Positions 10,210-30,002 of a stretch of DNA of 32,000 nt are shown here, one piece after another. Positions within the stretch are counted from its first letter, which is position 1; the number at the start of each line of letters is the position of its first letter. The notes beneath the pieces were generated by a model. That model had not been told where the DNA came from. It did not search any database and saw only the letters and a list, made by a program, of their open reading frames with translations. Source of the stretch: an uncultured Erysipelotrichaceae bacterium (GTDB lineage: Bacteria; Bacillota_I; Bacilli_A; Erysipelotrichales; Erysipelotrichaceae); assembly GCA_964401865.1 (NCBI GenBank), contig CAYNZZ010000004.1:62980-94979 (forward strand), given 5' to 3'. A program made the translations under genes and the position numbers.

Positions 10210-10213
10210 TTTT

Positions 10214-10236
10214 AAAGAAGCGAGAGCTTCTTTTTT

Positions 10237-10238
<2 letters not shown>
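10214..10238 (+). terminator. Rho-independent terminator AAAGAAGC-GAGA-GCTTCTTT + T7
   Basis: Read directly. Confidence 0.85.
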
Positions 10239-12227
<1,989 letters not shown>

Positions 12228-12512
12228 ATGGAAATAAATGAGATAAAAAAACTAGCACTTGATATTAAATTTGAATTATCAGATGAAGAAGCGAGCGATA
12301 TTCAAAATGATTTTGTTTTACTGGAAAAGAAACTTGCCTTGTTAGATGTTATTAATACTGATGGGGTTGAAGAAATGATATATCCGTTTGATATAGAGAC
12401 ATCATATTTGAGAGAAGACGAAGTAAGCGATGTTTTATCGGTTGAAGATGCTTTATCAAATGTATCTAAAACTAAGCAGAATCATGTGGTAGTACCAAAG
12501 GTGGTAAAATAA
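12228..12512 (+). CDS. gatC: Asp/Glu-tRNA(Asn/Gln) amidotransferase subunit C
   Basis: 94 aa, in the conserved gatCAB order, immediately after the ligA stop. Confidence 0.93.
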   Translation: MEINEIKKLALDIKFELSDEEASDIQNDFVLLEKKLALLDVINTDGVEEMIYPFDIETSYLREDEVSDVLSVEDALSNVSKTKQNHVVVPKVVK

Positions 12513-13912
12513 TGAGAATAAAGATTAATGACAATTATAAAGAAGAATGTTTAAAGGCTTATAATAAAGCAGTTGCAGTACAAGAAAAGGTCAATGCATC
12601 GGTTACTTTAATTGATCCAAGCTCAAGACTTGAAGAAAAGCTAGAAGGTAAGCTGAAGGGTGTTGCAATTGCGGTTAAGGATAATGTTAATACTAAGGGC
12701 GTTAAGACAACTGCCTGCTCAAGAATTCTAGATAATTATGTGCCTGTCTATAATGCGCATATTGTTGATTTGTTGAATAAAGAAGGCGCAGTCATCATAT
12801 CAAAAACCAATATGGACGAACTTGCTATGGGCGGCACTAATCTTACAAGTTATTTTGGGGCTTGTAAAAATCCATATGACTTGAATCGTATTTCAGGTGG
12901 TTCTTCAGGTGGAAGTGCCGTTATCGTTGCCAGTAATGTTGTAAGTGTATCTATTGGTTCTGATACTGGTGATTCAGTTAGAAAACCGGCGTCATACTGT
13001 GGCGTTGTCGGTGTTAAGCCTACATACGGTAAAATTTCTCGTTTCGGCATTATTCCATATGCTTCTAGCCTTGACCATGTTGGTTATTTTACTACCAATG
13101 TTAAAGATGCAGCTTTGATGTTAGAAGTATTGCAGGGCAGAGATGATAGAGATATGACTAGCGCTGATGTAGAAAATGAAGAATATACTAAACTTTTAAA
13201 TGCTGATGTAAAAGGTAAAAAAGTATTAGTATTTAAAAATGTTGTTGACGCTATCAAAAATGCAAAAACAGTTGAATTGTTTAATAATGTTGTAGAAATA
13301 TTAAAAAATAAGGGTGCTATGGTTGAAGAAGTTACCTATGATGAAGATTTATTAAGGGCAATTCTTCCTGTTTATTATATTATTGCTAATGCTGAAGCCA
13401 CAGCTAATCATTCAAACCTTGATGGTATTTTATTTGGACATAGGGAAGATGGCGAATCTACTGATGATATTATGATTAATAGCAGAACTAAAGGTTTTGG
13501 TCCATGGATTAAAAAACGTTTTGTCATTGGGTCTTATGCATTATTTGAAGAAAATCAAGAAAGATTATTGCGTAAAGCTCAAAAAGTTAGAAGGCTCATT
13601 GTTGATGAAGTATTATCTAAACTACAAGATGCTGATGTATTGCTTGCGCCGGCTGCTACAGGTGTGGCACCACTTATTGAAGGACAGTCAACCGATGAAT
13701 TATCAGACGAGTCTTTAATTGCGGAAAATCATATGGTTATTGCCAATTTTGGCGGTTTACCATCAATGACTATACCTATGGGTTATATTGATGGACTACC
13801 AATTGGTGTTAATTTAACAGCTAATCCTTTCAAGGAACAAGTAATGTTTGATATTGCTTTGGCTATTGAAGAAGGAACTGGTTTGGCTGATCAGACTAAG
13901 GAGGTATTATAA
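12512..13912 (+). CDS. gatA: Asp/Glu-tRNA(Asn/Gln) amidotransferase subunit A
   Basis: Amidase signature GGSSGGSA and gatCAB context. Confidence 0.96.
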   Translation: MRIKINDNYKEECLKAYNKAVAVQEKVNASVTLIDPSSRLEEKLEGKLKGVAIAVKDNVNTKGVKTTACSRILDNYVPVYNAHIVDLLNKEGAVIISKTNMDELAMGGTNLTSYFGACKNPYDLNRISGGSSGGSAVIVASNVVSVSIGSDTGDSVRKPASYCGVVGVKPTYGKISRFGIIPYASSLDHVGYFTTNVKDAALMLEVLQGRDDRDMTSADVENEEYTKLLNADVKGKKVLVFKNVVDAIKNAKTVELFNNVVEILKNKGAMVEEVTYDEDLLRAILPVYYIIANAEATANHSNLDGILFGHREDGESTDDIMINSRTKGFGPWIKKRFVIGSYALFEENQERLLRKAQKVRRLIVDEVLSKLQDADVLLAPAATGVAPLIEGQSTDELSDESLIAENHMVIANFGGLPSMTIPMGYIDGLPIGVNLTANPFKEQVMFDIALAIEEGTGLADQTKEVL

Positions 13913-15336
13913 TGGAATACGATGTTGTTGTCGGTTTAGAGATTCACTTGGAATTAAAAACTAAGACTAAGATGTTTTCGGGCGCTCCTTATGCTTTTAA
14001 AGATCAGGCTAATCATGATACAAACGAAATAGATTTAGCTCATCCAGGAACATTGCCTTGCGTTAATGAAGAAGCGGTTAAAAAAGCTATTCAAGCATGT
14101 GTTGCTTTCAATTTAACAATTGATCCACTTATCAAATTCGATCGTAAGAATTATTATTATTCTGATTTACCTAAGGGCTATCAGATTACTCAGCAATTTC
14201 ATCCGATTGGAAGACAGGGCTATATAGAAATTTTTGTTGATGGTAAGTATAAAAAGATTCGTATCAATCGTATTCATATGGAGGAAGATACTGCCAAACA
14301 ATTTCACTTATATGATGAGACTCTGATTGATTATAATCGTGCTGGTGTTCCTTTGATTGAACTCGTATCCGAACCAGATATGACCAATGGTCAAGAAGCC
14401 AGTCTATATTTAGAAAAACTTCGTCAGACTTTGGATTATCTTGAAGTATCAGATGTCAAGATGGAAGAGGGTTCAATGCGTTGTGATGTCAATGTATCGA
14501 TTAAACCAAAAGGTTCGAGTGTGCTAGGTACTAAAGTTGAAATCAAAAACTTAAATAGTATTTCTAATGTTAGGATGGCTATTGATTACGAAGTGCAAAG
14601 ACAAAAAGAATGTATTGAAAGTAATGAAGAAATAGTTCAAGAAACTCGTCGTTTTGATGAAAAGAGCCAAACTACTGTATCAATGAGAAAGAAAGAAGGT
14701 TCGGTTGACTATAAGTATTTTCCTGAACCAAATATTTTCCCAATCCGTTTAAGTGAAGAATTTATTAAAAATATCCAAGACAATATGCCTGAACTTCCAG
14801 ATGCGAAGTTTAAACGATACGTTGATGAATACAAATTGAGTGAATATGATGCTAACGTAATCATTGCTAATAAAGCTTTATGTGCATACTTTGAAAAGAC
14901 AATGCAGAAAACAAATAATGCTAAACTTGTAAGCAATATGTTGAGCAGTGAATTAGCTGGTATTTTGGCTAAAAATAACTATTCATTTGAGAATTGTCCG
15001 ATCAATAGTGATAACTTTGCTAAGTTAATTACGATGCTAGAGGCAAAAGAAATTTCTAATAATCAAGCCAAAGAAATTTTAGGTTTGATGCTAGATGGTG
15101 GTGACCCCAAAGCTATTGCTGATCAAAAAGGTTTTAAACAAGTATCTAATGAAGATGAAATCTTAAAATTAGTAATTTCTGTTCTTGATGATAATCCTCA
15201 ATCAATCGAAGACTTTAAGAATGGTAAAGATCGTGCCTTAGGCTTCTTGGTAGGACAGGTTATGAAACGTTCTAAAGGACAAGCTAATCCAAAATTGGCC
15301 AGTGAATTAGTCGCAAGAGAACTAAAGAATAGATAG
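13912..15336 (+). CDS. gatB: Asp/Glu-tRNA(Asn/Gln) amidotransferase subunit B
   Basis: The N-terminus YDVVVGLEIHLELKTKTKMF is typical of GatB. C-terminal YqeY-like tail. 474 aa. Confidence 0.96.
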   Translation: MEYDVVVGLEIHLELKTKTKMFSGAPYAFKDQANHDTNEIDLAHPGTLPCVNEEAVKKAIQACVAFNLTIDPLIKFDRKNYYYSDLPKGYQITQQFHPIGRQGYIEIFVDGKYKKIRINRIHMEEDTAKQFHLYDETLIDYNRAGVPLIELVSEPDMTNGQEASLYLEKLRQTLDYLEVSDVKMEEGSMRCDVNVSIKPKGSSVLGTKVEIKNLNSISNVRMAIDYEVQRQKECIESNEEIVQETRRFDEKSQTTVSMRKKEGSVDYKYFPEPNIFPIRLSEEFIKNIQDNMPELPDAKFKRYVDEYKLSEYDANVIIANKALCAYFEKTMQKTNNAKLVSNMLSSELAGILAKNNYSFENCPINSDNFAKLITMLEAKEISNNQAKEILGLMLDGGDPKAIADQKGFKQVSNEDEILKLVISVLDDNPQSIEDFKNGKDRALGFLVGQVMKRSKGQANPKLASELVARELKNR

Positions 15337-15342
15337 AAGATA

Positions 15343-15366
15343 AAAAGCCTTTGTATAGGCTTTTTA
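15343..15366 (+). terminator. Rho-independent terminator AAAAGCCT-TTGTAT-AGGCTTTT
   Basis: Read directly after the gatB stop. Confidence 0.8.
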
Positions 15367-15485
15367 TAAAGATTGAATAAAGTGATATAATAGTTGATGT
15401 ATTGGAAATATAATCCTTTTGAATATGGCATGATTATATATTTTCCAAACTAAAATAAATATGATAGAATTTTAAAGGTGATAAA

Positions 15486-16094
15486 ATGAAAGAAAATAAA
15501 CAAAAGATTAAAAAAGGAAAAAAGCTATCTAAGCCAGCTATTGTATTGATTGTTGGATTATGTATTATATTGATACCTCTAACTGTTTTTGGTGGAATAT
15601 TGCTTAAAGCCCAATTACAGACCGGTAAACCAATATTCGGCGATCGCTTTGTGGGGGATTTAGATCCAGCTATTACAAATCAACAGATGACCGATGTTGA
15701 AAATGAAATCAAGCAGTTAAAAGATGTTGAAGGAGTTACAGTGGTAATGACATCAGCACAGCTTCGCATCAACATTGATACTAAAGATACAATGACTGCT
15801 GAAGAAATGGATTTATTATTAGATGATGCTTATATCATTGTTAATAAAAAGCTACCTATTTCAACATATTTTACTTCAACCGATTCAAAAAGAATGTATG
15901 ACCTTGCGATAAATGCTTATAACTTCATTGATAGAGATGATGAAAGTATGGTTTATGTGATATTGACCAAGAATGCTATGATGGATAATTGGGAAAAACA
16001 AGTGTTGTCTGAACCGTTAGATAGCGAATTAGCTAGTGAACTTCGTGGGGAAAATGTTGAAGTTGAACCTACAGAAACTCCAGAGGCTGAATAA
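15486..16094 (+). CDS. Hypothetical membrane-anchored protein (N-terminal TM helix, acidic C-terminus)
   Basis: Lys-rich N-terminus, one TM helix (IVLIVGLCIILIPLTVFGGILL), then a soluble domain. SD AAAGGTG. No family recognised. Confidence 0.7.
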   Translation: MKENKQKIKKGKKLSKPAIVLIVGLCIILIPLTVFGGILLKAQLQTGKPIFGDRFVGDLDPAITNQQMTDVENEIKQLKDVEGVTVVMTSAQLRINIDTKDTMTAEEMDLLLDDAYIIVNKKLPISTYFTSTDSKRMYDLAINAYNFIDRDDESMVYVILTKNAMMDNWEKQVLSEPLDSELASELRGENVEVEPTETPEAE

Positions 16095-16132: not shown

Positions 16133-17440
16133 ATGAAAAATCAGAAAATAGAATGTAAATGTATAGATATGACTGTTGACGGCTTTGGGATTTGCAAGTA
16201 TGATTCCTTAGTTATTTTTGTCAAACAAATGCTCATTGATGAAGTGGCGATCATCAAGATTATTTCTCATAAGAAGAATTTAGCTTATGGCATTATCGAT
16301 ACTTTAATTGTACCTAGCAAATATCGCATTAATAGTCCGTGTAAAGTGGCATATAAATGTGGAGGCTGCGATTTGCGACATGTCGATTATCGTTATGGTC
16401 TGAAGCTCAAACATAATATTTTAGATAATACGATGAATAAAATGGCTAAATTAGGAGTGAAAGTCGAGGATATTGTCGAAAGTCCTTTAAAAGATGGATA
16501 TCGAAATAAGGTGCAAATACCGGTTAAAGAAAAGGGTATTGGCTTTTATCGCAAGAACTCCAATGATATCGTGGAGTTTGATAGATGTTTAATTCAAAGT
16601 GATGTTGAAAATGATATATTGTCTAAGCTAAAAGAACTAATTGGTGAATATAAGATAAGCGATTATTTGCGCCATATCATAATTAAAGAAGCATTTGGTA
16701 CAAAAGAAGTTATGGTGGCACTGGTTGTCAAAAGTTTTGATATACCGTCAATCGATGAGATAACAGCCATTATGGTTAAATGTTTCCCAATGATTAAGTC
16801 TTTTATTTTGAATTTAAAAAAGACTGATGATAATGTTGTACTGGGTGATGAAGAAAAGATATTATATGGTTCTTCATATATTATTGATGAATTTGATGGA
16901 ATTATGGTTGAGATTTCGCTTAAATCTTTCTATCAGGTTAATCATCAACAAATGATAAACCTTTATAATAAGGTTTTAGAATTAGCCGATGTCGATAAAG
17001 ATAGTTCAGTATTAGATTTATTTTCGGGTATTGGCACTATTTCTTTATTTATGGCAAAACACGCAAATAAGGTTATTGGCGTTGAGATTGTTGAAGATGC
17101 GGTGATGAACGCTAAAGAGAATGCTAAGCTAAATCATATTGATAATGCAGAGTTTTATCTTGGTGATGCAAAGGATGGATTAAATGAATATTTAGTCGAT
17201 AAAGATGTAGTTATTGTTGATCCGCCTAGAAAAGGTTTAAATGAGCAGATAATTGATAAACTAGCAGAGTTTAATATTCCTAAGATTGTTTATGTTTCTT
17301 GTAATCCTGCGACATTAGCCAGAGATTTAGAACTATTTAAAAAGAAAGGTTACTACTTTGATACAGTATATCCTTTTGATATGTTTCCGCATACAATGCA
17401 TGTTGAGACGGTCTGCTTGATGTCTAGGAAAGAGAAATAA
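16133..17440 (+). CDS. rlmD: 23S rRNA (uracil-C5)-methyltransferase, RumA/RlmD family
   Basis: N-terminal TRAM-like region, Fe-S cysteines (CKVAYKCGGCDLRH ... FDRC), SAM motif LDLFSGIGTISL and catalytic VYVSCNPATLARD. Confidence 0.93.
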   Translation: MKNQKIECKCIDMTVDGFGICKYDSLVIFVKQMLIDEVAIIKIISHKKNLAYGIIDTLIVPSKYRINSPCKVAYKCGGCDLRHVDYRYGLKLKHNILDNTMNKMAKLGVKVEDIVESPLKDGYRNKVQIPVKEKGIGFYRKNSNDIVEFDRCLIQSDVENDILSKLKELIGEYKISDYLRHIIIKEAFGTKEVMVALVVKSFDIPSIDEITAIMVKCFPMIKSFILNLKKTDDNVVLGDEEKILYGSSYIIDEFDGIMVEISLKSFYQVNHQQMINLYNKVLELADVDKDSSVLDLFSGIGTISLFMAKHANKVIGVEIVEDAVMNAKENAKLNHIDNAEFYLGDAKDGLNEYLVDKDVVIVDPPRKGLNEQIIDKLAEFNIPKIVYVSCNPATLARDLELFKKKGYYFDTVYPFDMFPHTMHVETVCLMSRKEK

Positions 17441-17550
17441 ATAGCGAAAAGTAGCGTATTTACGGGCTTTTTTGAGATTAGGCAATAGCTCATGAAAGTC
17501 CGTAATTCTTATATTGAAACATATCTACTGTAAAAATGGTCAGATGGTTT

Positions 17551-17694
17551 AGGCTGTGGATTAGATGTCGTGGGTTGTGGCACTAAGATAGATGTTATCT
17601 AGGGTGCAAACTCAATTTGAGTGAGTGATTTAGATGTTGTCTAATCCGGCAACTCAACCGTTGGCAATAAAGCAGGCAGTGGATTAGATGTTAT
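17551..17694 (+). repeat. Four direct copies of a TAGATGT-centred motif, all in one reading phase, including an 18-bp repeat AGGC[T/A]GTGGATTAGATGT
   Basis: TAGATGT lies at 17562, 17589, 17631 and 17685, giving offsets of 27, 69 and 123 nt, all multiples of 3. The 18-mer at 17551-17568 matches 17674-17691 with one mismatch. Confidence 0.8.
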
Positions 17695-17712
17695 GGAAGG
17701 AGCGAGGAAACA

Positions 17713-18642
17713 ATGAAATGTGCGTATTGTGGAAAAGAAGCTAAAGGTACAAAAGAGCATATCATTTCCAGTGGTATTCTCGGATTATTCCCTGAGTGCT
17801 TTGCGACAATAGATGGTGAAAGGAAAGTAGTGCATCAAGGTGACCCAATGGTTAAAGATGTGTGCGCCGATTGCAATAACAACAAAATTTCTTATATAGA
17901 TTCCTACGCCAAGGCATTTATAGAAAAGTATTTTATTAGGAAGTACACCAAGGACGAGATTTTGAAAATAGAATACGATTACTCTATGATTCAAAAAATG
18001 TGCTTGAAATATGCGTTCAATGATTTGCGTTCGAGAAAGAAGGACACTTCATTTTTTAGTGAAGAAATTATTGGTTTTCTTTTAAATGAAAACGAAACAG
18101 AGCCATTAAGAAATGTAACAGTGTTGGCTGGACTTGCAGTAAATACTTCTCCTATGCCAGATTATGTTTTCGGTAATATGAAATTACGTTGGAGTGACTC
18201 ACCAATGTTTTGCTCGAATAGTATTGCAATGAATGTTGATTATGATACAGGGAAAATAACATTACGAGATAAGATGGAAGTTCAGGAGTTTAAGAATACC
18301 GCATTATCATATGTGTTTAGATTTAACAGTCTCCAGATATTGTTACTTTGTTGGGATAAAGAAATCACAGATGCGGATTTAATGGAAAACAAGATTGTTT
18401 TAGAGCATCAGTATCCGTATAAGATACTGGAACCTGTAGGTAATTCTGAGATATCAAGGTGTACTAGTGAGGCTACATATCATCATGAGAAAATAATTGA
18501 TGTAACATGGGGGCAATCAATTATGGATGAAATAAGTTTTATGAGAGGCACATTTACTGAGGAATATCAAAAATATATGTCTTTTGTTGAGTCTGAATGG
18601 AGTAAAGAAGAAAAGCATTTATCAGAAGAACATCCAAGATAA
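17713..18642 (+). CDS. HNH-type endonuclease domain protein (HNH_5-like head plus unassigned ~235-aa C-terminal domain)
   Basis: C3-x2-C6, E15-H16, C51-x2-C54-N55 (MKCAYCGKEAKGTKEHII...VCADCNNNKISYID). SD GGAAGGAG upstream. I recognise nothing in the remainder. Confidence 0.75.
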   Translation: MKCAYCGKEAKGTKEHIISSGILGLFPECFATIDGERKVVHQGDPMVKDVCADCNNNKISYIDSYAKAFIEKYFIRKYTKDEILKIEYDYSMIQKMCLKYAFNDLRSRKKDTSFFSEEIIGFLLNENETEPLRNVTVLAGLAVNTSPMPDYVFGNMKLRWSDSPMFCSNSIAMNVDYDTGKITLRDKMEVQEFKNTALSYVFRFNSLQILLLCWDKEITDADLMENKIVLEHQYPYKILEPVGNSEISRCTSEATYHHEKIIDVTWGQSIMDEISFMRGTFTEEYQKYMSFVESEWSKEEKHLSEEHPR

Positions 18643-18693
18643 CTCGCGAAAATTACAAAGCCTATTATAGAAGCAATAGGAGGTTCGAAACAT

Positions 18694-19983
18694 ATGGAAT
18701 ACATAGGAATTGGTATTGTCATAGCTGTAGCAATAGCAGCAGGCATTATCATCTATACAAAATTTAATAAGCGTGAAGCTATTCCATCAGGAGATTTGGT
18801 ATCAGTGTCAACAACCAGCGGAAAAGATGAGCTTGCTGAGATTCATCAGGAAAATGAACTTATTATTCAGATGGAGATGCTCCCGGCTGAAGCTATTGAT
18901 GATGAAACTAAGCTGGTAGAAATTACCGATAGCAAGGTTCTTGCTCATGTCAATAATCTGGTTCCGGGATTGGCTCAGGCTGGCAATGCAGTAAATAATG
19001 CTGCGCAGGCTGTTCAAGCAGCGAATGGCGAAGTGTTGTATCGTGCGGTTATTCCAGCAGGTGCCAAACTGACAAATTCTAAAGCAATGGAAGGTGCTGT
19101 ACGCGGTATCTATCATGGTGCTGATGGAATTAAAGGTCATGCCAATCTTGTGGCTGTAGAAGCACAAAAAGGAACTGCGGTAGTTGCTAATACTGCAGCA
19201 GCGGCAATGGGCGTTGCATCAATGGTTGTTGGTCAGTATTACATGACTCAGATAAATGCTGAGCTAGGTGAAATCAGTGATGGCATTTCTCAGATACAGG
19301 ATTTTCAGGATAATGAGTATCGCAGCAGAGTATTTTCGCTTGTAGCTCACGTAAAAAAGATTGCTGATTTCCAAACTGAAATTTTAGAAAACGATGAGTT
19401 ACGTCTTTCAAAGATTGCGCAACTTGATAGCTTGGAAGAAGAATGTACACAGCTTCTAGGACAAGCAAATCTTACACTCGCAGGTTTCGCAAAGAAAACG
19501 GGTCTAGATTATGAAGCTTATGAGAAGGCATTAGGTAATGCGCAGAACTGGTTTATGTATCAGAAGTCATTATTGGATGTGCTTTACAAGATATCTGATT
19601 TGAGATATACATTGCACTTGGGTGCTGTATCAAGGGAACAGTGTGTTGCGTTATTACCAACCTACACTAAGCAAGTAAGTGATACTCAAGAACGACTTAC
19701 AGCATGGCATGATGGAACAACTCAACGCTTAGGCATCGAAACTGATGAAATTCGCAGAAAAAGAGCTGGATTTGATAGCGTGATTCATTTCATACCGGGA
19801 CTGTTTAACGATGATTTCAATTTCCGTTCGATAGAAAAGAAAACAGCAAAAATGATTACTGCGCAGGCATCTGGTCATGAATCATTACATGTTGTGGATA
19901 CATCAGAGCTATATTCAGAAGATGTTCAACTAATTTCAAAAGATGGAAAGATTTATTATCTTCCTGAAAGTAAAGCAGAGTAA
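18694..19983 (+). CDS. Membrane-anchored hypothetical protein (N-terminal TM, Ala/Gly-rich region, helical C-terminal domain)
   Basis: TM helix at residues 4-21 followed by K/K/R. Second hydrophobic stretch at about residues 161-184. SD AGGAGG 8 nt upstream. Lies 51 nt after the HNH gene with no terminator between them. Confidence 0.75.
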   Translation: MEYIGIGIVIAVAIAAGIIIYTKFNKREAIPSGDLVSVSTTSGKDELAEIHQENELIIQMEMLPAEAIDDETKLVEITDSKVLAHVNNLVPGLAQAGNAVNNAAQAVQAANGEVLYRAVIPAGAKLTNSKAMEGAVRGIYHGADGIKGHANLVAVEAQKGTAVVANTAAAAMGVASMVVGQYYMTQINAELGEISDGISQIQDFQDNEYRSRVFSLVAHVKKIADFQTEILENDELRLSKIAQLDSLEEECTQLLGQANLTLAGFAKKTGLDYEAYEKALGNAQNWFMYQKSLLDVLYKISDLRYTLHLGAVSREQCVALLPTYTKQVSDTQERLTAWHDGTTQRLGIETDEIRRKRAGFDSVIHFIPGLFNDDFNFRSIEKKTAKMITAQASGHESLHVVDTSELYSEDVQLISKDGKIYYLPESKAE

Positions 19984-19991
19984 ATAAAAAC

Positions 19992-20022
19992 AACCCTCTC
20001 AACCATCATGGCTGGGAGGGTT
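19992..20022. terminator. Bidirectional hairpin terminator between convergent cargo operon and recombinase operon
   Basis: 10-bp stem AACCCTCTCA / TGGGAGGGTT (one G-U pair), flanked by A5 on the left and T4 on the right. Confidence 0.7.
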
Positions 20023-20036
20023 TTGTGCGTCTTGTG

Positions 20037-21605
20037 CTATCTTTCTACATCGACCTTGAGTCCGGATTTCAATTCAACGGTGCAGTGGGTTGGCCAGATT
20101 ATGATTTGTTTAAGCCAGCGTTTTACAAGGGTTTCATCAAACACTGTAAGGTCGGAAGGCTGGTCTTTAATGAAATCCTGCAATTCGTTTATGCGCTGTA
20201 ACTGTTCATCACGCTGTACCGTGTCAATTGATGCTTGCTGACGCTTTTCTCTGAGTGTAAAAATCTGGTCGGCAATCTCGTCGTAGGCTTCTTTGTTGTT
20301 GGCCTTTTTAACAAGCTCCTGCTGAAGTTCCATAAGCTTCTCATCAATACCATCCGTGGTGATTGCTGCAGAAGCTCTGATGACCGAGGCGATGTTTTGC
20401 TGTAGCTGTTTCTGGTATTTGGATTTATCACCAAGGAGCTCATTCAAGGCAATGAGTACGATTTCCTGTAGGTCAAGCTCGTTGATGGTTCTGGCGTGGC
20501 ATTCAAGGCCAGTAGGTTCTAGCTTGCTAATGCAGTGCCAGACGATGGACTTGCAGCCGCGATTGTTCCAATGAATTCTTCTGAACATCTCACCGCAGTC
20601 GCCACAAATGATAATCTGTGAGAAGCAGTGGTTGCAACTGTAGCTTCGTTTCTTTCCATTGGCGCTGGTCTTAACCACTCGTCTGCGTACCAATTCTTCC
20701 TGCACACGCATGTAAATCTCTTTTGGGATAATCGCTTCGTGGTTTCCTTCAACATAATACTGCGGAACGATGCCAGTGTTTTTAACTCTTGTCTTGTTAA
20801 GAAAATCGGTGGTGTAAGTCTTTTGAAGAAGGGCATCACCGATGTATTTTTCATTGCGGAGAATCTTGTTGATGGTGCTTGTATGCCAGCGTGGTTTACC
20901 TGCGCCGGTAAGAATACCATCCGCTTCAAGACCTGCAGCAATCTTATCCATACTGTAGCCTTCAAGGTACTCTCGGTAGATGCGCTTTACAACTTCAGCC
21001 TGTTCAGGGTCAATGACAAGGTTGCCATCTTCATCTTTGGTGTAGCCAAGGAAGCGGTTGTGGTTTACCTGCACTTGACCATTCTGGTAGCGGAACTGAA
21101 GACCAAGCTTTACGTTCTGGCTTAAAGACTGTGATTCTTGCTGGGCCAGTGAAGCCATAATCGTAAGAAGAACTTCACCCTTGGCATCCATTGTATTGAT
21201 TGCCTCTTTTTCAAAGAATACAGGGATGTTCTTTTCCTTAAGCTGTCTGATGTATTTCAAGCAGTCTAAGGTGTTTCTGGCAAATCGGCTGATTGATTTT
21301 GTGATAATCATGTCGATGGTGCCAGCTTCGCAATCCTCAATCATTCGGTTGAATTCTTCTCTGTTCTTTGTGTTGGTACCGGAAATACCGTCATCAGCGT
21401 ATATTCCGACAAATTCCCATTCAGGGTTCTTCTTAATATATTCTGTGTAGTGCTCAACCTGAGCTTCATAACTTGTAGCCTGCTCATCGCTGTCAGTACT
21501 TACTCTACAGTACGCCGCGACTCGGAGTTTAGGCTTTGCATCCTGCTTGCGACCGGTATTACCAATTTGTCGCTTGGCAGGAATGACCATTACATTTCCC
21601 ATCAA
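20037..21605 (-). CDS. Large serine recombinase (resolvase/invertase N-domain + recombinase domain + zinc ribbon + coiled coil), apparently intact
   Basis: Catalytic region [14 protein letters not shown], the motifs [11 protein letters not shown] and [11 protein letters not shown], recombinase domain, and Cys-rich zinc ribbon (CNHC...CGDCG). 522 aa. Confidence 0.92.
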
Positions 21606-22021
21606 ATAACCTCGCTTTCTATAAGGCTGTATAAGTACTCAGCCTGTTTTACTGGATTGTCAAAATACTCTGTGATATCGCTGAAGCGGAAGAGTATTGG
21701 AGCCTTTTTCTCAGGTAGTTCTTTGAATCTGTCGTTGCGGCCAAGTTTGGCTGACCTGCGTCTGATTTCTCTACCTGCAGCAATGAAGGTTTCCTTATCG
21801 ATGATGGCTGGATAAAAGTCATCACCGAGATAATGCTTGTTTTGCATAATTCGCTTGGAACCTGCGTGAAGAGCATTGATTCCAGCTTCCTTAGCAGCAT
21901 TCGTAAGTGAAAGACCACTAAGGTAATTCTTGTATAGCTGTCGTACCTTAGCTGCAGTTTCTTCATCGATAACTGCGATTCCATTTTCGATACGATAGCC
22001 AAGTGGCGTATGTCCCATCAA
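21602..22021 (-). CDS. Small recombinase-domain-only protein (no catalytic resolvase domain)
   Basis: [46 protein letters not shown] matches the start of the 'recombinase' domain of large serine recombinases. 4-nt overlaps with both neighbouring genes. Confidence 0.7.
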
Positions 22022-23324
22022 ATCATCTCCTTAAAAGTAAGACCACACTTCATGACAAATCCGACTTCCTTTCTGGAATACACCAGAATGTGGTCTACAA
22101 ATCTCTCAAATAAATCTTCGCTGTATTCTTCCAGCATTGAACCACGTTCCGCAAAGTGGAGTAGGCGTTCAGCTTCAAAGAACCTAGAGCTGTCACCGCT
22201 CATCGTAGCATTGATAACCTCGATGTTCTCCCTGTAGGTATTGGCCTGTGCAAGAAGAGCATTTGTTTCGCTGTTGTACAATGCTTGGTCGATGTAGCCT
22301 TGCGCCATCAGTCTGGTTAAAGTTTCTCGCTGTTCCGTATTCTGCTCCAGAAGTCGTTCTAAGTGCTGAATTCTTACAAGGTTCTCATCACTGGAATTGC
22401 TCTGGAGGGCAGCAGCATAAGGTTTCAAGACTAGCTTGTGGCTGTAGATTAGTTTGTTAAGAACGGTAACGAAAGCTACCTTTAAATCTTCATCCTTAAG
22501 AAATAGCATCGAGCATTTTGTTTTATCTGCCAGATGGGTATTGTAGCACCAAGCTACGTATTTGCCATAGGTACTGGAGTGCATCCTTCTCCTGAAGGTA
22601 TCGCCACATTCGTCGCAGATGATTTTTCCGGAGAAGGCATAACGCTGCTGGTACTTATTGCTTTCACGCTGGATACCTTTTTCAGCAGCGCGTTGGGTTA
22701 CCAAAAGTCCTGCTGCTTCAAAATCTTCTTTACTGATAATGGCTTCGTGATGGTCGGCAACATAATACATATCAAGTTCACGTTTGTTGTATGTCTGTTG
22801 AAAGAACCATCTGTAAAGGTCTTCTGGAAGATAACGTCGCCGGTATATTTCTCATTGGCAAGAATGCCTCTAATACTTGTTGATGTCCATTTACTACCAC
22901 GCTCGGTAGGGGCACCTTCATCCTCAAGGGCTCTTGCGATAGCATCCGTACCTTTACCGGAAAGAACATCAACAAAGATATGTTTTACAACTTCAGCCTG
23001 CTCAGGAATAACGCGAAGTGTGCGTCCATCCCAGCGGTATCTGTAAGGAGCGTAGCTAAGTTTGAAGGTTCCATTCTGGAATCGCTTCTTGATTGACCAC
23101 TTGCTGTTTTCAGAAATAGAAGTGGATTCACCTTCGGCCATTGAGCTTAGGATTGTCAGGAATAGTTCGTTTTCCATTGAGCCGGTGTTTATGTTTTCTT
23201 TTTCAAAGTAAATAGGAACATCCAGCTACTGCAGCTTTCTGACAAGCTCCAAGCAGTCAGTTGTGTTTCTTGAGAATTGGCTGATGGATTTTGTAATGAT
23301 GAAGTCTATCTTCTTCAAGGTGTA
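22018..23324 (-). pseudogene. Decayed large serine recombinase: 5'-truncated, in-frame TAG, one frameshift
   Basis: My reverse translation upstream of 23177 gives [51 protein letters not shown], with the stop at 23226-23228. This is homologous to the intact paralogue from [11 protein letters not shown] onward. The N-terminal ~90 aa, including the catalytic Ser, are absent. A frame change near 22771-22790 joins ORFs 22698..23177 and 22018..22770. Confidence 0.85.
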
Positions 23325-23325
23325 G

Positions 23326-23658
23326 TTTTACAAATATTATAGTGGGCTTGGGATTGAGAGAAATGACATAGAGGGTGTTCTTGAATTGAACCTAGAGCAG
23401 CATAGCTATGATATTTTGATCTATGACAATGTTCCGGGAGGAGCAGGTCATGTTAAGAGACTGGTTGAGAAGAACGCTGTAATAACATCTTTAAATGCAG
23501 CATATGTGAAAGTATCACAACAATGTTGCGATAAAAACACTTCTTGCTATAACTGCCTTAGAAACTATTGCAACCAAGCAAATCACAGTAAATTAAAACG
23601 CAAGTATGCTCGTGATTTCATTGAAAGTCTATTGAGACAAATAGGTGTTAGACCTTAA
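23326..23658 (+). pseudogene. 3' remnant of a DUF1998 (MrfA/YprA, DrmB, DruE-type) helicase-associated gene
   Basis: ILIYDNVPGGAGHVKRL ... QQCCDKNTSCYNCLRNYCNQANHSKLKRKYA is the four-Cys zinc-binding C-terminal module of DUF1998 proteins. The frame is open only back to 23326, there is no helicase body upstream, and it abuts the truncated recombinase. Confidence 0.75.
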
Positions 23659-23987: not shown

Positions 23988-24013
23988 ACACTCACATATT
24001 GAGTGTTTTTTAT
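23988..24013 (+). terminator. Rho-independent terminator ACACTCA-CATAT-TGAGTGT + T6
   Basis: Read directly. It has no intact gene in front of it. Confidence 0.75.
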
Positions 24014-24220
24014 TATGATCGATTATTAATATTCAAATGGATTTACCTCTTTTTCTTCGATTACAGGTTTTAATTGATTTAAAATTTTTCATCAATAGGT
24101 AATCTAATCCAAATTATATATCTTCATTTAATTATACTTTTAGCTTTATTTATTAGTTAGTAATATTTTTGTTGAATGATTATATAATCTATAATTGGAA
24201 ATATATGATTGGAGATTTAA

Positions 24221-24685
24221 GTGATTGAATTGTATAAACCTAAAATAGAAGAGTTATGGTTCAGAGAAGCAATGCTAAATGATAAACAAACTATGTCTTA
24301 CAATAATGCTTATGGTGGCACAATACCATTTCCAAAAGAAAAATGGCAATCGTGGTACGATAAGTGGTTAGTAAATGCTGAAGATAAAAGATTCTATAGG
24401 TACATTAAAGATAACGATGATTTTGTAGGTAATGTAGCATATTATTTTGACGAAGATAGAGAAATATATATTACGGAAATAGTTGTATATGCTCCGTATA
24501 GAAGAAAAGGATATGGCTACAGTGCGTTATTAAAAATATGCGAGATTGCTAAAAACAATGGTATAAGTGAAATATACGATGACATAGCTATAGACAATCC
24601 GTCGATTTCATTATTTATTAAATGTGGTTTTAAGAAAGTGATGCAAACTGATGAGTATATTTTGGTTAAAAGAGAATTTGATTAG
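24221..24685 (+). CDS. GNAT-family N-acetyltransferase
   Basis: GTG start after GGAG. Acetyl-CoA-binding core IVVYAPYRRKGYGYSALLKICEIAKNNG. 154 aa. Confidence 0.8.
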   Translation: MIELYKPKIEELWFREAMLNDKQTMSYNNAYGGTIPFPKEKWQSWYDKWLVNAEDKRFYRYIKDNDDFVGNVAYYFDEDREIYITEIVVYAPYRRKGYGYSALLKICEIAKNNGISEIYDDIAIDNPSISLFIKCGFKKVMQTDEYILVKREFD

Positions 24686-24822
24686 GTAATTAAATCATTA
24701 TTTTATTTATACTATCCAGCGTGATATTCAATCACATTCGGCAGTAAGCAGAAATATAAATAAATATATGCAAGCTAACTGAGATTGTATAGATTAGAAA
24801 TATTTTATATTCTTAAAATAAG

Positions 24823-24856
24823 TTAACATATTTTAACATAACTACTACTTAACATA
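24823..24856 (+). repeat. Three direct TTAACATA repeats upstream of the SWIM gene
   Basis: TTAACATA at 24823, 24833 and 24849, read directly. Confidence 0.5.
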
Positions 24857-24930
24857 AGAAACAATAACGGAATCATTGAATCATAGAATACGCATTGTTA
24901 GAATTGAGATGTATTAGAAAGAGGTATAAT

Positions 24931-25815
24931 ATGTCAGATAATAATGTGATAAAAATAATTGATAATGAAATATTAGATGATGAAGAAGAATCAACACTTT
25001 ATTGTGATGAAGGAAAAATCTTAGGTAAAATGAAAGATGAATTTCATGACAAGATTAAAAGAAGAGGAAAAGATTATTACTATCTTGGAAATGTTCTAAA
25101 GTGTTTTAAAGATGGCAATAGTTATGTTGCGAAAGTAAAAGGTTCTTTGCCAAAACCATACACTGTGAAAATTACCAATAGTATTTATGATGGCATAAAA
25201 ATGGAATGTGATTGCCCATGTGACTATCCATGTAAACATGAATATGCTGCATTGATGGCTATATCTAATCAAGAATATAAAGAAGTGACATTGAAACCTG
25301 AATTAACAAAAAAGAAAAAGCCATTGTGTTCAATTATTGAAAGCATTCCTGCCGAAGAAATTAAGTCATATTTATTATCTCCGGTAGGCGAAGATTATGT
25401 TTGCTTTGAAATGATGGCCTTCGAGAAATATTTTATAAAGTATCTGCCAAAACAAGATTATGATTTTTACTATAACAACCTCTACAACAAAATTCTTTTA
25501 GAGGAAGATACAGATATGATATTAGAGTCGTATTTGGATAAAACTAAACAATATATTGATGGCGATGATTTTGTTGAAAGCTTTAAAATAATAAAAAGTA
25601 TAATCGAAGCTTATAACGATTCAAATAGACTCAATTTTGATGATTGTATTATTGATACATTATCTAAAATTGGTATGTTTTTAAGAATTATATATCGAAA
25701 GTGTGATATTGATACAAAGAAAGATATTGATGAATGGGCAGTATCTTTAAAAGATAGTGATTATTATGATAACTATTATTTAGAAGATATTATCAAAATG
25801 GTTAAAAGTATTTAA
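24931..25815 (+). CDS. SWIM zinc-finger domain protein
   Basis: RGKDYYYLGNV...AKVKGS...YTVKI...CDCPCDYPCKHEYAALMAI is the CxCxnCxH SWIM pattern. The ATG at 24931 follows AGAAAGAGG, and the listed TTG start at 24895 is unlikely. Confidence 0.8.
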   Translation: MSDNNVIKIIDNEILDDEEESTLYCDEGKILGKMKDEFHDKIKRRGKDYYYLGNVLKCFKDGNSYVAKVKGSLPKPYTVKITNSIYDGIKMECDCPCDYPCKHEYAALMAISNQEYKEVTLKPELTKKKKPLCSIIESIPAEEIKSYLLSPVGEDYVCFEMMAFEKYFIKYLPKQDYDFYYNNLYNKILLEEDTDMILESYLDKTKQYIDGDDFVESFKIIKSIIEAYNDSNRLNFDDCIIDTLSKIGMFLRIIYRKCDIDTKKDIDEWAVSLKDSDYYDNYYLEDIIKMVKSI

Positions 25816-25823
25816 GAAAAATT

Positions 25824-25854
25824 GAGGTAGTTTATAGATGACTATCTCTTTTTA
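25824..25854 (+). terminator. Hairpin GAGGTAGT-N9-ACTATCTC + T5
   Basis: Read directly; the stem has one G-U pair. Confidence 0.55.
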
Positions 25855-25926
25855 TAAGAATGGTTACTAAAGCTAGAAACAATGTGTAAAACGATTTAAT
25901 ATTATATTAAGGAAGGAAGTTGCCTT

Positions 25927-27204
25927 ATGAAACAAGCTTATATTAATGGAATAATACTAGATGGTACAAAAGATATGAAACCTGTATCAGGTAAAATGAT
26001 TTTGTGTAATGATGGAATAATCGAAAGCATCGAAAATCAAAGAGATATTTCTGATTATGAAATAATAGATTTGAAGAATAGATATATCATGCCTGGGCTT
26101 ATCAATTTACATGTTCATTTACCAGCGACTGGTAAACCACAAAAGAAACCAACCGATCCTAAGAAACTTATCAAGTTAGTTGGCTTAAATAGCTTGACCA
26201 AAAAGATTGGCGAAAAAATCTGCGAAAAAAGTGCTAAGACTCAATTATTGAGTGGCACCACAACCATTAGAACAGTGGGTGGAGCTTTTGATTACGATAC
26301 GATTATTAGAGATAAGATTGCGAATAAGGAAATAATTGGACCTAGAATTTTAGCTAGTAATATGGCTATCTCGGTTCCTGAAGGTCATATGGCAGGTTCA
26401 CTTGCCTATATTGCACATGATGAAAATGAGACTAGTAATTATGTAGAGATGATAGCTAAAGATAAACCTGATTTAATTAAACTTATGATAACTGGTGGCG
26501 TCTTGGATGCTAAAGTAAAGGGAGAACCAGGCGAGCTTAAAATGAGTGCAGAACTTGTTAAAGCAGCATGTGATAAAGCTCATGAATTAGGATTGGTTGT
26601 GGCGAGCCATGTCGAAAGTCCGGAAGGGGTAAAGGTAGCTTTGAAAAATGGTGTTGATACGATTGAGCACGGTGCCAAACCTGATGAAGAGATGATTAGT
26701 TTATTTAAAGAAAGAAACGCATCGTTAGTTACCACTTTATCCCCAGCCTTGCCATTTGCACTATTTGATCAAAGTGTTTCCAATGCTTCAGACATCGAAA
26801 AATACAATGGCAATATTGTTTTTGAAGGAATTATCGATTGTGCAAAAACCTGTTTAAAAGAAGATATAAAAGTTGGTTTGGGAACTGATACTGGTTGCCC
26901 GTATGTAACTCATTATAATATGTGGCGCGAATTAAATTATTTTCACAACTATTGCGATGTATCTAATAGTTTTGCTCTATATACCGCAACCTTAGTTAAC
27001 GCAGAAATTGCTAAGATTAGCCATATGGTAGGTTCGATTGAAAATGGTAAATGCGCCGATTTTATTGTCACTAAAGAAAATCCATTAGATAATCTTTGTG
27101 CTTTAAGGAATATTGACATGGTTGTTAAGGATGGAAAAATAATAAATAATCCAACCGTTAAAAAAATGGATAATGTCGAAAGGGAATTAGATAAATTTAT
27201 CTAA
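25927..27204 (+). CDS. Metal-dependent amidohydrolase family protein
   Basis: HxH motif (INLHVHL), later metal ligands (ASHVES, IEHG) and GTDTG. 425 aa. Confidence 0.85.
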   Translation: MKQAYINGIILDGTKDMKPVSGKMILCNDGIIESIENQRDISDYEIIDLKNRYIMPGLINLHVHLPATGKPQKKPTDPKKLIKLVGLNSLTKKIGEKICEKSAKTQLLSGTTTIRTVGGAFDYDTIIRDKIANKEIIGPRILASNMAISVPEGHMAGSLAYIAHDENETSNYVEMIAKDKPDLIKLMITGGVLDAKVKGEPGELKMSAELVKAACDKAHELGLVVASHVESPEGVKVALKNGVDTIEHGAKPDEEMISLFKERNASLVTTLSPALPFALFDQSVSNASDIEKYNGNIVFEGIIDCAKTCLKEDIKVGLGTDTGCPYVTHYNMWRELNYFHNYCDVSNSFALYTATLVNAEIAKISHMVGSIENGKCADFIVTKENPLDNLCALRNIDMVVKDGKIINNPTVKKMDNVERELDKFI

Positions 27205-27245
27205 TTCTTTTATTTATGTATGATAATATATAGATAAATATCAAT

Positions 27246-27539
27246 ATGAATAGTATAGATAAAGAAAATTTTGAAATTAACTCAATGATTATGAAGGCTT
27301 TTTCAGATCCTTGGCGCTTAAAGATTCTCAAAATATTGAAAGACGAACCTAAAAATGCCTCAGAATTATTGAGCTATTTAAACATCACTCAACCAACTCT
27401 ATCTCATCACATGAGAATTTTATTAAATTCCGGAATTGTGAAAGCAAATAAAAGGGGCAAATGGTCATATTACAGTCTAAATTGTGAGATGTTAAAGGAA
27501 GTTTCTAAGTATATTAGCGATATATCTAAAGATTATTAG
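27246..27539 (+). CDS. ArsR/SmtB-family transcriptional regulator
   Basis: FSDPWRLKILKIL...ASELLSYLNITQPTLSHHMRILLNSGIV...GKWSYYSLN. The SD is weak, so the exact start is uncertain. Confidence 0.82.
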   Translation: MNSIDKENFEINSMIMKAFSDPWRLKILKILKDEPKNASELLSYLNITQPTLSHHMRILLNSGIVKANKRGKWSYYSLNCEMLKEVSKYISDISKDY

Positions 27540-27588
27540 ACAAAAGATGATTATGCAGATATAATGCTTTAAAGGATAAGGGGAAAAT

Positions 27589-29251: not shown

Positions 29252-29257
29252 AGCTCA

Positions 29258-29293
29258 ATTATAATTGACATTGCAAGGGCTGTAAACTATAAT
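29258..29293. promoter_or_regulatory. Overlapping divergent sigma-A promoters
   Basis: + strand: TTGACA (29265-29270)-N17-TATAAT (29288-29293), a perfect consensus. - strand: TTTACA (complement of 29281-29286)-N17-TATAAT (complement of 29258-29263), ending 6 nt before the tmcAL ATG. Confidence 0.7.
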
Positions 29294-29313
29294 TATTAGG
29301 CGTTGGTGCGAAA

Positions 29314-29808: not shown

Positions 29809-29810
29809 AG

Positions 29811-29957
29811 ATGGCAGTTCAACAGAGAAGAAATTCAAAAACAAGAAAAGCAAAAAGAAGAACACATTTTAAATTAACAGCACCTACATTGGTGAAATGT
29901 CCTGCTTGCGGTGAATTTAAATTACCTCACCACGCTTGTTCTTGCGGACATAAATAA
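29811..29957 (+). CDS. rpmF: 50S ribosomal protein L32
   Basis: Not in the ORF track because it is under 60 aa. My translation is [59 protein letters not shown] upstream. Confidence 0.93.
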
Positions 29958-29972
29958 TCTATTTGCTTAAAT

Positions 29973-29996: not shown

Positions 29997-30002
29997 TCTT
30001 AG

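Follow-up and report, generated by a model that had tools for sequence, protein, structure and literature searches.

Candidate single-gene defence cargo in the exchange slot of a decayed rumA-targeting serine-recombinase island

In the 32,000-nucleotide stretch of DNA analysed here, which we call the window, two adjacent genes (gene 1, with a nuclease-like head, and gene 2, with a membrane anchor) lie between a rumA-type methyltransferase gene and a group of serine recombinases. The question raised by this locus is whether both genes constitute a single sensor/effector defence system, as the original prediction proposed, or whether they are separate passengers that happen to be neighbours. The individual features described in that prediction were largely found again in our analysis, whereas its reading as a single two-gene system did not stand. 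The reading that we favour as fairly probable from sequence comparisons is a joint one: the locus would be the cargo-bearing part of a small serine-recombinase island, partly decayed, in the 3' end of rumA, and its two genes would be independent candidates for single-gene defence or abortive infection.

The rumA island and its expression signals

Both co-oriented ORFs were recovered as described (Table 1), separated by a gap of 51 nt, and each of them is preceded by an SD site (GGAAGGAG at 17695-17702 and AGGAGG at 18678-18683) located 10 nt upstream of its ATG. Both are real genes under purifying selection (dN/dS 0.04-0.10), with 333 homologues of gene 1 and more than 1649 of gene 2. The search for a terminator pattern between the two genes gave none, in agreement with the original prediction, and the spacer folded at the level of shuffled sequences (-5.7 kcal/mol, z -0.2). 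The hairpin expected downstream of gene 2 was confirmed, with -18.4 kcal/mol (z -3.1) on one strand and -19.2 kcal/mol (z -4.4) on the other, and hairpins of this type occur directly 3' of single cassettes in four other loci. As judged from these signals, gene 1 and gene 2 probably share one transcript.

Table 1. Coordinates of the features of the locus, numbered along the window
Feature	Position	Strand	Remark
rumA/rlmCD-type 23S rRNA (uracil-5) methyltransferase, integration target	16133..17440	+	Pfam tRNA_U5-meth_tr 1.2e-21
Approximate left junction (attL), CATGTTGAGACGG	17398..17412	.	Placed by onset of similarity
Cargo-slot leader, repeated (G)GATTAGATGT motifs, 3' end = SD GGAAGGAG	17441..17702	+	
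Gene 1, 309 aa, zinc-ribbon HNH_5-type head and alpha/beta tail	17713..18642	+	Variable-slot occupant
Spacer of gene 2 unit, CTCGCGAAAATTACAAAGCC...AGGAGG	18643..18693	+	Junctions of 26 loci
Gene 2, 429 aa, N-terminal TM anchor	18694..19983	+	
Bidirectional terminator hairpin	19990..20026	.	Common to element family
Intact large serine recombinase, 522 aa	20037..21605	-	Resolvase 2.8e-37, Recombinase 2.2e-24, Zn_ribbon_recom 2.6e-9
139-aa Recombinase-domain ORF and second serine recombinase split in two ORFs	21602..23177	-	Decayed right end
MZB (MrfA Zn-binding, former DUF1998) helicase-associated gene remnant	23386..23658	+	PF09369 1.1e-8

The claim that this cargo occupies a known integration hotspot within an island was likewise supported: the insertion lies in the rumA 3' end and a large serine recombinase is found at the opposite side. 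An MZB/DUF1998 remnant is located at 23386-23655. G+C climbs from about 0.31-0.35 to 0.40-0.46 across 19-23 kb. Homology to sister elements begins within the 3' end of rumA (17378-17405), whose final ~13 codons come from the island, and similarity among loci with different left neighbours starts at the approximate attL. Towards the right, the second serine recombinase lacks the catalytic Resolvase domain and homology to one sister element extends to about 23315; no right boundary of the island could be set. According to the portions of a survey of Firmicutes elements considered here (PMC4701971), single serine integrases are documented to insert at rumA and the att site lies within the integrase gene, so that integration swaps gene ends. 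The chimeric N-terminus of the recombinase in locus L006, where the leader is joined at the attL point to the RVSTD-coding stretch of a resident recombinase gene, fits a rumA island of this type.

Genes between leader and terminator are freely exchanged among sister elements

Gene 1 stands in a fixed expression slot, which consists of a leader of ~300 nt (marker sequence GGCARTGRATTARATGTTATGGAAGGAG), an ORF and then a conserved spacer. On the other side, the element family keeps a conserved terminator before the recombinase gene. Among blastn-compared loci with differing ORFs the leader is 77-96% identical, mostly 89-96%, and the exact 28-nt pattern of its end is present in 49 metagenome loci. 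In every compared locus, identity to sister elements breaks off at 17702 and returns at 18640-18644, and the ORF in between differs. At least 15 unrelated ORF families occur directly behind the exact leader pattern in sister elements, and further unrelated ORFs are located behind diverged leaders or immediately 5' of more distant gene 2 homologues. Likewise, the spacer type that precedes gene 2 begins immediately after the stop codon of whichever gene comes before it.

Defence-like neighbours were observed in other genomes, in support of the original prediction. Annotated ORFs in the slot or upstream of gene 2 include AbiH (3.6e-51), AbiJ_NTD3 (6e-25), DUF4238 (3e-22), RES, HNH_3 and GmrSD, as well as the PADLOC candidates PDC-S11 (1e-81) and PDC-S09. 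The cargo is not purely defensive, since the slot also contains ORFs without a defence-like appearance, such as a glyoxalase-like protein, a CDP-alcohol phosphatidyltransferase fusion and an ADH_zinc_N fragment. The leader itself has a fold z of -3.6; as a structured RNA it displayed neither covariation (term +0.32, 1 of 40 pairs) nor an Rfam match, and a sigma-70 promoter search of it returned nothing convincing. GCGAAAA(G/T)TA, present at both 17441 and 18643, was considered as a direct repeat or att site and rejected as a short match not beyond chance, with four occurrences found in the window against 1.5 expected.

The original prediction had named beforehand the failure of homologues to co-localise elsewhere as evidence against its reading; they do fail to co-localise, and a single sensor/effector system is not supported. 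None of the 79 species-level gene 2 loci contains an intact gene 1, a 34-aa remnant being found in one of them, and the pair is known only from the window and, with a broken gene 1, from Veillonella. Upstream of gene 2 in these 79 loci, a tight ORF is present in 33, rumA is the nearest gene in 10, none is present in 29 and the contig is too short for a decision in 7; the tight ORFs belong to more than 20 unrelated families. Moreover, gene 2 is located immediately behind the leader in five loci and its spacer immediately after the rumA stop codon in two others, while only 2 of the 49 leader-bearing metagenome loci carry it at all. DUF4238 and RES cassettes occupy the slot of gene 1 both with and without gene 2, and decay of either gene is seen while the other remains intact. 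Gene 1 and gene 2 are independent cargo units, arranged here in tandem without an intervening terminator, and their adjacency in one operon does not imply one system.

A variable partner could nevertheless be part of a design rather than of a shuffle. It is rather unlikely, in our opinion, that gene 2 serves as a common membrane-tethered sensor, scaffold or executioner for interchangeable upstream effectors, gene 1 among them, in a manner resembling JukA with its variable effectors. The wider form of the idea, with gene 2 as a common membrane module coupled to HNH, RES, SIR2-like, HEPN/AbiJ and DUF4238 effectors and rumA islands as an integron-like shuffling platform, has a similarly low probability; if true, it would represent a modular two-component immunity design so far undescribed for Gram-positive bacteria. 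Gene 2 does follow at least seven unrelated effector-type ORFs (HNH_5, DUF4238, RES, AbiJ, SIR2-like, a 412-aa and a 280-aa ORF) with an identical spacer type running from the stop codon, and such a constant 51-nt spacer after many effector-type genes could reflect functional coupling. The missing terminator between gene 1 and gene 2, a read-through fusion of DUF4238 and gene 2 in one locus, and JukB as the best PDB fold match of gene 2 point in the same direction. Against this, intact and conserved copies of gene 2 lack any upstream partner on plasmids, behind rumA and immediately behind the leader, the same cassettes exist without gene 2, and one gene decays beside an intact other. AbiH, AbiJ, DUF4238 and GmrSD are known as single genes by annotation or action, and the variable upstream proteins have no common terminus or domain; a docking terminus shared by them was looked for and none was seen.

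The two cargo proteins and their putative roles

Under the preferred reading of independent cargo, each protein has to be considered on its own. The CxxC/EH/CxxCN signature announced for gene 1 is confirmed by its homologues, 50 of which were compared: C3, C6, E15, H16, C51 and C54 are invariant and N55/N56, the Asn after the second CxxC pair, nearly so (at least 90% conserved). The two CxxC pairs (C3/C6 and C51/C54) are as expected of the zinc brace of a His-Me finger/HNH_5 domain, and the EH motif ends the strand 12-16 in the AF2 model, which matches the first-strand criterion for the catalytic His. The assignment of an HNH_5-type head holds at the family level, with PF14279 matching 30 of the 50 members at E<0.01 (best 4.5e-6), whereas the window protein alone remained below the Pfam threshold (E 0.03, 14.7 bits, gathering cut-off 27.5). 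The head spans approximately residues 1-75 and conservation extends to ~115; matches on enterobacterial and other plasmids cover residues 3-115 only. In the AF2 model (pLDDT 91, pTM 0.91) the head is followed by a conserved alpha/beta tail of ~230 aa, and Foldseek gave no fold match of this model in the PDB (best E 0.06). Homologues of gene 1 occur without gene 2 in four other settings: C. difficile prophages, the rplL site, the rumA site, and members of the same element family from which gene 2 is deleted. Relatives of gene 1 also recur beside STAND NTPase and DUF4365 genes.

The N-terminal TM helix predicted for gene 2 was clearly detected (KD19 2.55), and its C-terminal half is helical as claimed; the second hydrophobic stretch, at 161-180, is present but borderline (KD19 1.66). 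After the TM anchor (2-24) come an acidic linker, which is disordered, and a small domain of beta/alpha type (59-153). The hydrophobic helix, with the best-conserved motif of the family, VVGQYYMxQIN (179-188), precedes a bundle of helices (207-346), and a further small domain makes up the C-terminus. This family comprises 750 clusters at 50% identity; its members come from Bacillota, Actinomycetota and further phyla and are often carried by Enterococcus faecalis plasmids, although a literature search on one such homologue (WP_002362438) was without result. Gene 2 appears alone on 81 plasmids, close to PemK/MazF, Fst, Fic, AbiV and R-M genes. Among its 132 nearest neighbours outside the rumA context, GmrSD_N (4), DUF4238 (3), Fic (3) and Macro (2) were recorded, with MobL relaxases (3) and integrases also recurrent. 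Against viral structures, Foldseek returned for gene 2 a single uncharacterised siphovirus protein (E 2.6e-4), an uninformative match. Neither gene 1 nor gene 2 had a significant match among Pfam, PADLOC, NCBIfam and PHROGs profiles, neither family profile found any PDB sequence, and both proteins were absent from 50,697 phage genomes.

As we could infer from these features, gene 1 may act on its own as a nuclease-type defence or abortive-infection protein, in which the zinc-braced HNH (beta-beta-alpha-metal) head would cleave nucleic acid and the conserved tail would target or control the head. Gene 2 would be a stand-alone membrane-tethered protein with most of its mass in the cytoplasm, according to the positive-inside rule, and with its conserved hydrophobic helix presumably concealed within the helical bundle. 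It most likely acts at the membrane, where it might cause an infection-triggered permeabilisation leading to abortive infection, or interfere with the entry of DNA.

We regard as very unlikely that the two genes are addiction or toxin-immunity cargo stabilising the island, with gene 1 as a nuclease toxin and gene 2 as its immunity protein or antitoxin, or the reverse. Such a role would be in line with the RES toxins among the slot cargo, with the SUKH (SMI1/KNR4) immunity-type second genes that follow first genes of 413, 292 and 256 aa in sibling elements, and with PemK/MazF, Fst and Fic near the plasmid copies of gene 2. Immunity proteins, however, are toxin-specific, whereas gene 2 remains the same behind different first genes and is also found alone, and gene 1 in turn occurs without gene 2. 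To our knowledge, a 429-aa membrane-anchored protein would also be atypical as an antitoxin. A type II toxin-antitoxin pair was rejected, since its partners vary freely instead of showing a specific, conserved pairing. Most improbable of all are functions serving the element itself, with gene 1 as a phage-packaging or homing HNH endonuclease and gene 2 as a factor that excludes competing elements or DNA entering the cell: a gene 1 homologue does lie two genes 5' of the terminase genes in C. difficile prophages and the membrane-anchored gene 2 does travel on islands and plasmids, but a STAND NTPase gene parts gene 1 from the terminase, gene 1 is threefold larger than packaging HNH proteins and is present in non-phage islands, neither protein was found among the phage genomes searched, and gene 2 resides in tiny islands and on plasmids, 61 of 81 of which are typed as mobilisable and not as conjugative, and no transfer apparatus was seen in its vicinity.

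If the reading of independent defence cargo is confirmed, these loci would define a compact family of serine-recombinase islands that target rumA in gut Firmicutes, with a fixed leader and ribosome-binding site and ORF-precise exchange. Since known Abi and defence genes alternate in the slot with many unannotated ORFs, the slot offers a ready list of candidate defence genes, each with guilt by association from its slot-mates. A phenotype for gene 2 would annotate thousands of proteins of a very large family that lacks a Pfam model, and in gene 1 the HNH_5 head, itself poorly characterised, is extended by a conserved tail of 230 aa.

Comparison with known systems

The original prediction that no named defence system would match was borne out, neither protein reaching E<=1 with any family of PADLOC-DB 2.0. 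Septu (PtuA ATPase and PtuB HNH) resembles gene 1 in having an HNH nuclease as presumed effector; nonetheless, no Septu-type ATPase partner is present, as had been stated, the neighbours being rumA, gene 2 and recombinases, and the HNH of gene 1 is of the HNH_5 type with a large tail of its own and no PADLOC match. The combination of a constant gene with variable partners recalls Juk, in which the sensor JukA works with variable effectors and JukB is a pore former (bioRxiv 10.1101/2022.09.17.508391, PMC13282480), though the constant gene 2 is also found alone. The best PDB match of gene 2 in Foldseek is the JukB chain 9jht_B, a weak one (E 0.025, TM 0.24/0.36), and membership of JukB was rejected on this weak fold match and a profile that finds no PDB sequence; no JukA/YaaW domain was found among the Pfam matches to the scanned window ORFs. 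AbiH, AbiJ and the DUF4238 system sit in exactly the slot of gene 1 in sister elements, without sequence relation to gene 1, which has an HNH_5 head, or to gene 2.

As for the carrier, the island shares with rumA-targeting Firmicutes ICEs and IMEs, as they appear in the portions considered here (Ambroset et al. 2016, PMC4701971), the insertion at the rumA 3' end, a recombinase with Resolvase, Recombinase and Zn_ribbon domains, and an att site inside the integrase gene. It differs from the elements in those portions in its size of only ~6.5 kb, in that no conjugation or mobilisation module was seen, and in that the recombinase gene seems to be exchanged at its 5' (RVSTD-coding) end rather than at the 3' end; the same portions of the rumA-element literature hold no mention of a leader-SD slot with interchangeable ORFs. 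The closest parallel to the cargo turnover is offered by the hotspots of P2 phages and P4 satellites (Rousset et al. 2022, PMC9122126), where conserved flanks likewise enclose many alternative anti-phage cargoes, including a DUF4238 single gene that confers strong T7 resistance in E. coli. Unlike those hotspots, the carrier described here is a serine-recombinase island of gut Firmicutes, in which ORFs are precisely replaced behind a common ribosome-binding site with at most two tandem cargo units per leader.

An expression slot with exchangeable cargo

Our comparisons do not support the undescribed two-gene system that had been proposed for this locus, which is an expression slot with exchangeable cargo and not a gene pair. 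The predicted layout itself was recovered, namely two co-oriented ORFs, gene 1 (HNH_5-head protein) and gene 2 (membrane-anchored protein), separated by 51 nt, each behind its own Shine–Dalgarno sequence (SD). A pattern search of the intergenic spacer found no terminator and the spacer folded no more strongly than shuffles (−5.7 kcal/mol, z −0.2), while the expected hairpin 3' of gene 2 was strong on either strand (−18.4 and −19.2 kcal/mol, z −3.1 and −4.4 versus shuffles). Both genes are probably transcribed together, from the leader ahead of gene 1 or by read-through from rumA, the 23S rRNA (uracil-5) methyltransferase-type gene upstream. For gene 1 we found 333 homologues, for gene 2 over 1649, and dN/dS values of 0.04-0.10 against relatives at several distances indicated purifying selection on both.

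Identity to sister elements (blastn) ended at 17702, the end of the gene 1 SD, and restarted at 18640-18644, just past the stop codon. These breakpoints were kept in every locus compared, whichever ORF lay between. The leader (~260 nt) was 77-96% identical (mostly 89-96%) among blastn-compared elements with differing cargo. Independently of gene 2, metagenome contigs were searched for the 28 nt that end the leader; the pattern occurred in 49 loci, with an ORF start 8-12 nt past it in nearly all and gene 2 in two. Many loci (e.g. L106, L127, L136 and L139) showed the order leader, one ORF, a terminator hairpin as in the window and a recombinase gene. Fifteen unrelated ORF families lay behind the exact leader in metagenome loci, including AbiH (3.6e-51) and an HNH_3 protein, and DUF4238 and RES cassettes were found both with and without gene 2. 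Some sibling elements (metagenome loci L107, L110, L113, L114, L117, L122, L123, L133, L143, L147, L149 and L152) carry a 141-aa SUKH (SMI1/KNR4) immunity-type protein as constant second gene behind three unrelated first genes (413, 292 and 256 aa), the same variable-first, constant-second pattern as in the gene 2 elements. Part of the slot cargo appears non-defensive, such as a glyoxalase-like protein and a CDP-alcohol phosphatidyltransferase fusion.

The motif (G)GATTAGATGT is repeated four to five times in the leader, with some inverted pairs, and the leader RNA fold reached −78.4 kcal/mol (z −3.6 versus shuffles). Since neither an Rfam match nor covariation was found for it, the leader could alternatively be a set of protein-binding DNA sites rather than a structured RNA. 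In L098 and L099 it is shorter, as if the stretch separating two of the repeats had been deleted. A near-palindrome, CTCGCGAAAATTA, opens the spacer (18643-18655) and reads TTCGCGAA in most loci; ATAGCGAAAAGTA, directly past the rumA stop codon (17441-17453), is similar. This likeness might mark a recombination scar on either side of leader plus cassette, but so short a match is not beyond chance within the window.

Separate occurrence of gene 1 and gene 2

Gene 2 behaves in these comparisons as an autonomous unit. Its relatives numbered 235 when each species was represented by one genome, and 79 loci were analysed. A tight co-oriented upstream ORF (<=100 nt), belonging to more than 20 unrelated families, was present in 33 loci and absent in 29; rumA was the nearest upstream gene in 10, and the contig was too short in seven. 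An intact gene 1 occurred in none of the 79 and a 34-aa remnant in one, so that the co-occurrence as adjacent pairs implied by the original prediction was not found. Upstream of close homologues in other assemblies (94-99% identical) the gene differed each time: a 412-aa protein without assigned function (L001), a DUF4238 protein gene in Enterococcus cecorum and a broken gene 1 copy in Veillonella caviae. Upstream ORFs include DUF4238, RES, AbiJ_NTD3, GmrSD, nucleotidyltransferase and PNKP, together with the PADLOC candidate families PDC-S11 (1e-81) and PDC-S09. The 51-nt spacer moves with gene 2; it lies directly 3' of the rumA stop codon in L024 and L066, and follows the leader with no ORF between in L027, L040, L055, L029 and L041. 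Because effector-type genes so often stand immediately upstream of gene 2, with the spacer conserved, gene 2 might still be the common partner of varying upstream genes in a modular system; set beside the loci where gene 2 has no tight upstream gene, we regard this as unlikely.

On 81 plasmids (70 from Enterococcus, others from Lactococcus and Lactiplantibacillus) gene 2 was a lone hypothetical gene, with neighbours including PemK/MazF, Fst, Fic, AbiV and an R-M system. Among its 132 nearest neighbours at loci other than rumA, GmrSD_N (4), DUF4238 (3), Fic (3) and Macro (2) recurred, as did MobL relaxases (3) and integrases; this neighbourhood is of the defence-island and mobile-element type. 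Gene 2 was absent from 50,697 phage genomes. Its longer relatives P0336, P0376 and P0386 are fusions to a microbial PARG/macro domain, a P-loop GTPase-like region or DUF1643, and P0411 is a stop-codon read-through joining DUF4238, spacer and gene 2. Truncated copies joined to other sequence (P0241, P0242 and P0255), recognisable in the first two as type I R-M (hsdM/hsdR) fragments, point to R-M systems often adjoining gene 2. On the E. faecalis plasmid pBE5_2 (L154, 10538-16213), three genes just downstream of gene 2, encoding an 864-aa sigma-like HTH protein, a 405-aa unannotated protein and a DEAD/DEAH helicase, look like another uncharacterised defence-type operon.

Gene 1 likewise appears autonomous, with homologues lacking gene 2 in four kinds of place. 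The first is a set of four C. difficile prophage variants (L002-L005, 8001-11448), where a 61% identical homologue is followed after ~490 nt by a 653-677-aa NACHT/nSTAND3/SNaCT5 STAND NTPase; the two form a conserved block in these prophages, which differ in other respects; it lies past the late-regulation genes and ahead of the terminase genes. As no recognised effector domain was among the listed Pfam hits of the STAND protein, this raises the idea of the HNH protein working for it in trans. At the rplL hotspot (L102-L104, 6001-7415), a DUF4365 gene overlaps a 67% identical homologue by 49 nt; IS66 and IS3 elements flank that pair. A further setting is rumA with other neighbours, and in L099, of the same element family, gene 1 is kept and gene 2 plus terminator are precisely deleted. 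Decay of one gene with the other intact was seen in both directions. We hold the independence of the two genes to be quite probable. That they are toxin-immunity or addiction cargo appears improbable.

The carrier island

Features of the locus and its surroundings in the window
Feature	Position	Strand	Detail
rumA-type methyltransferase gene	upstream of leader		island's integration target
Leader	17441-17702		conserved block
Gene 1 SD	17695-17702		GGAAGGAG, 10 nt ahead of ATG
Gene 1 ORF	17713-18642	+	309 aa
Spacer	18643-18693		
Gene 2 SD	18678-18683		AGGAGG, 10 nt ahead of ATG
Gene 2 ORF	18694-19983	+	429 aa
Terminator hairpin	19990-20026		
Large serine recombinase, intact	downstream	opposite to genes 1/2	522 aa
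Recombinase-domain ORF	downstream	opposite to genes 1/2	139 aa
Second serine recombinase	within 21602-23658	opposite to genes 1/2	split into two ORFs, without catalytic Resolvase domain
MZB (DUF1998) gene remnant	abuts broken second recombinase		90 aa
GNAT acetyltransferase	24221-24685		Pfam
Amidohydrolase	25927-27204		Pfam

The proposed setting as defence cargo of an island stood as regards the rumA island, the serine recombinases and the DUF1998 remnant. The island's right part (21602-23658) is decayed, no clear attR was found at its right end, and the copy in the window is probably immobile by now. Likeness to sister elements starts at ~17398, inside rumA, suggesting that the last ~13 rumA codons are island-supplied. 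In E. cecorum (L006:6163-6597, minus strand), the N-terminus encoded by a resident serine recombinase gene is foreign (MSYCLISKKPGNTLLF...TVSTC), and the join falls exactly on the RVSTD catalytic motif; the foreign part corresponds, in reverse complement, to the block made up of the leader and the 3' end of rumA (window 17398-17493, minus strand). From this join, the att site of the island family seems to lie within the 5' part of the recombinase gene that encodes the catalytic serine, in agreement with what has been published on serine integrases that target rumA, where att is internal to the integrase gene (PMC4701971). Elsewhere in the window (1-16000 and 24000-32000), covered by an ORF listing and a few Pfam checks, G+C is ~0.30-0.35 and nearly all genes are on the plus strand.

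Candidate functions and known systems

The predicted zinc-ribbon HNH signature of gene 1 was upheld, C3, C6, E15, H16, C51 and C54 being invariant and N55/N56 nearly invariant in 50 homologues (54-95% identity). The window protein fell under the Pfam threshold for HNH_5 (E 0.03), and 30 of the 50 family members matched at E<0.01 (best 4.5e-6), so that the HNH_5 head assignment stands for the family as a whole. HNH_5, a mostly uncharacterised group, is placed in the His-Me finger superfamily (PMC5714182). The confident AlphaFold model (pLDDT 91, pTM 0.91) matched no fold in the PDB (best E 0.06), nor was there a PDB sequence match. Weak plasmid matches indicate that the head (residues 3-115) is common to proteins with different tails, and the tail (~residues 76-309) has many invariant residues of its own among the 50 homologues. 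Gene 1 may encode a nuclease-type protein that works alone in defence or Abi, and its tail would control the HNH head.

A strong N-terminal TM helix was computed for gene 2, as anticipated, and the basic residues after it suggest that most of the protein is probably cytoplasmic. A disordered acidic linker, a small beta/alpha domain and a helical bundle forming most of the remainder follow (model pLDDT 81), the most conserved family motif, VVGQYYMxQIN, standing at the end of a borderline hydrophobic helix. The family comprises 750 clusters at 50% identity, 299 with E<=1e-30; consistent with the proposed lack of a named system, it had no match in Pfam, PADLOC, NCBIfam or PHROGs. Gene 2 may act at the membrane, either by permeabilising it when triggered by infection or by keeping DNA from entering.

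Overall we favour, with some reserve, two independent single-gene defence or Abi-type cargo units on a rumA island. The solid parts of this reading are the slot with exchangeable cargo, gene independence, purifying selection, the HNH signature and the membrane anchor; the chances of a defence role are slightly better than even. Functions serving the element itself are very unlikely.

The best PDB fold match of gene 2 was JukB, a pore-forming anti-jumbo-phage effector (PMC13282480), a weak likeness (E 0.025, TM 0.24/0.36) without sequence support from the family profile against PDB sequences, which we take as a lead only. Defence cargo at mobile-element hotspots is already known (PMC9122126); new here are this carrier family, with its ORF-precise slot behind a common ribosome-binding site, and the placing of two large unannotated protein families in that slot.
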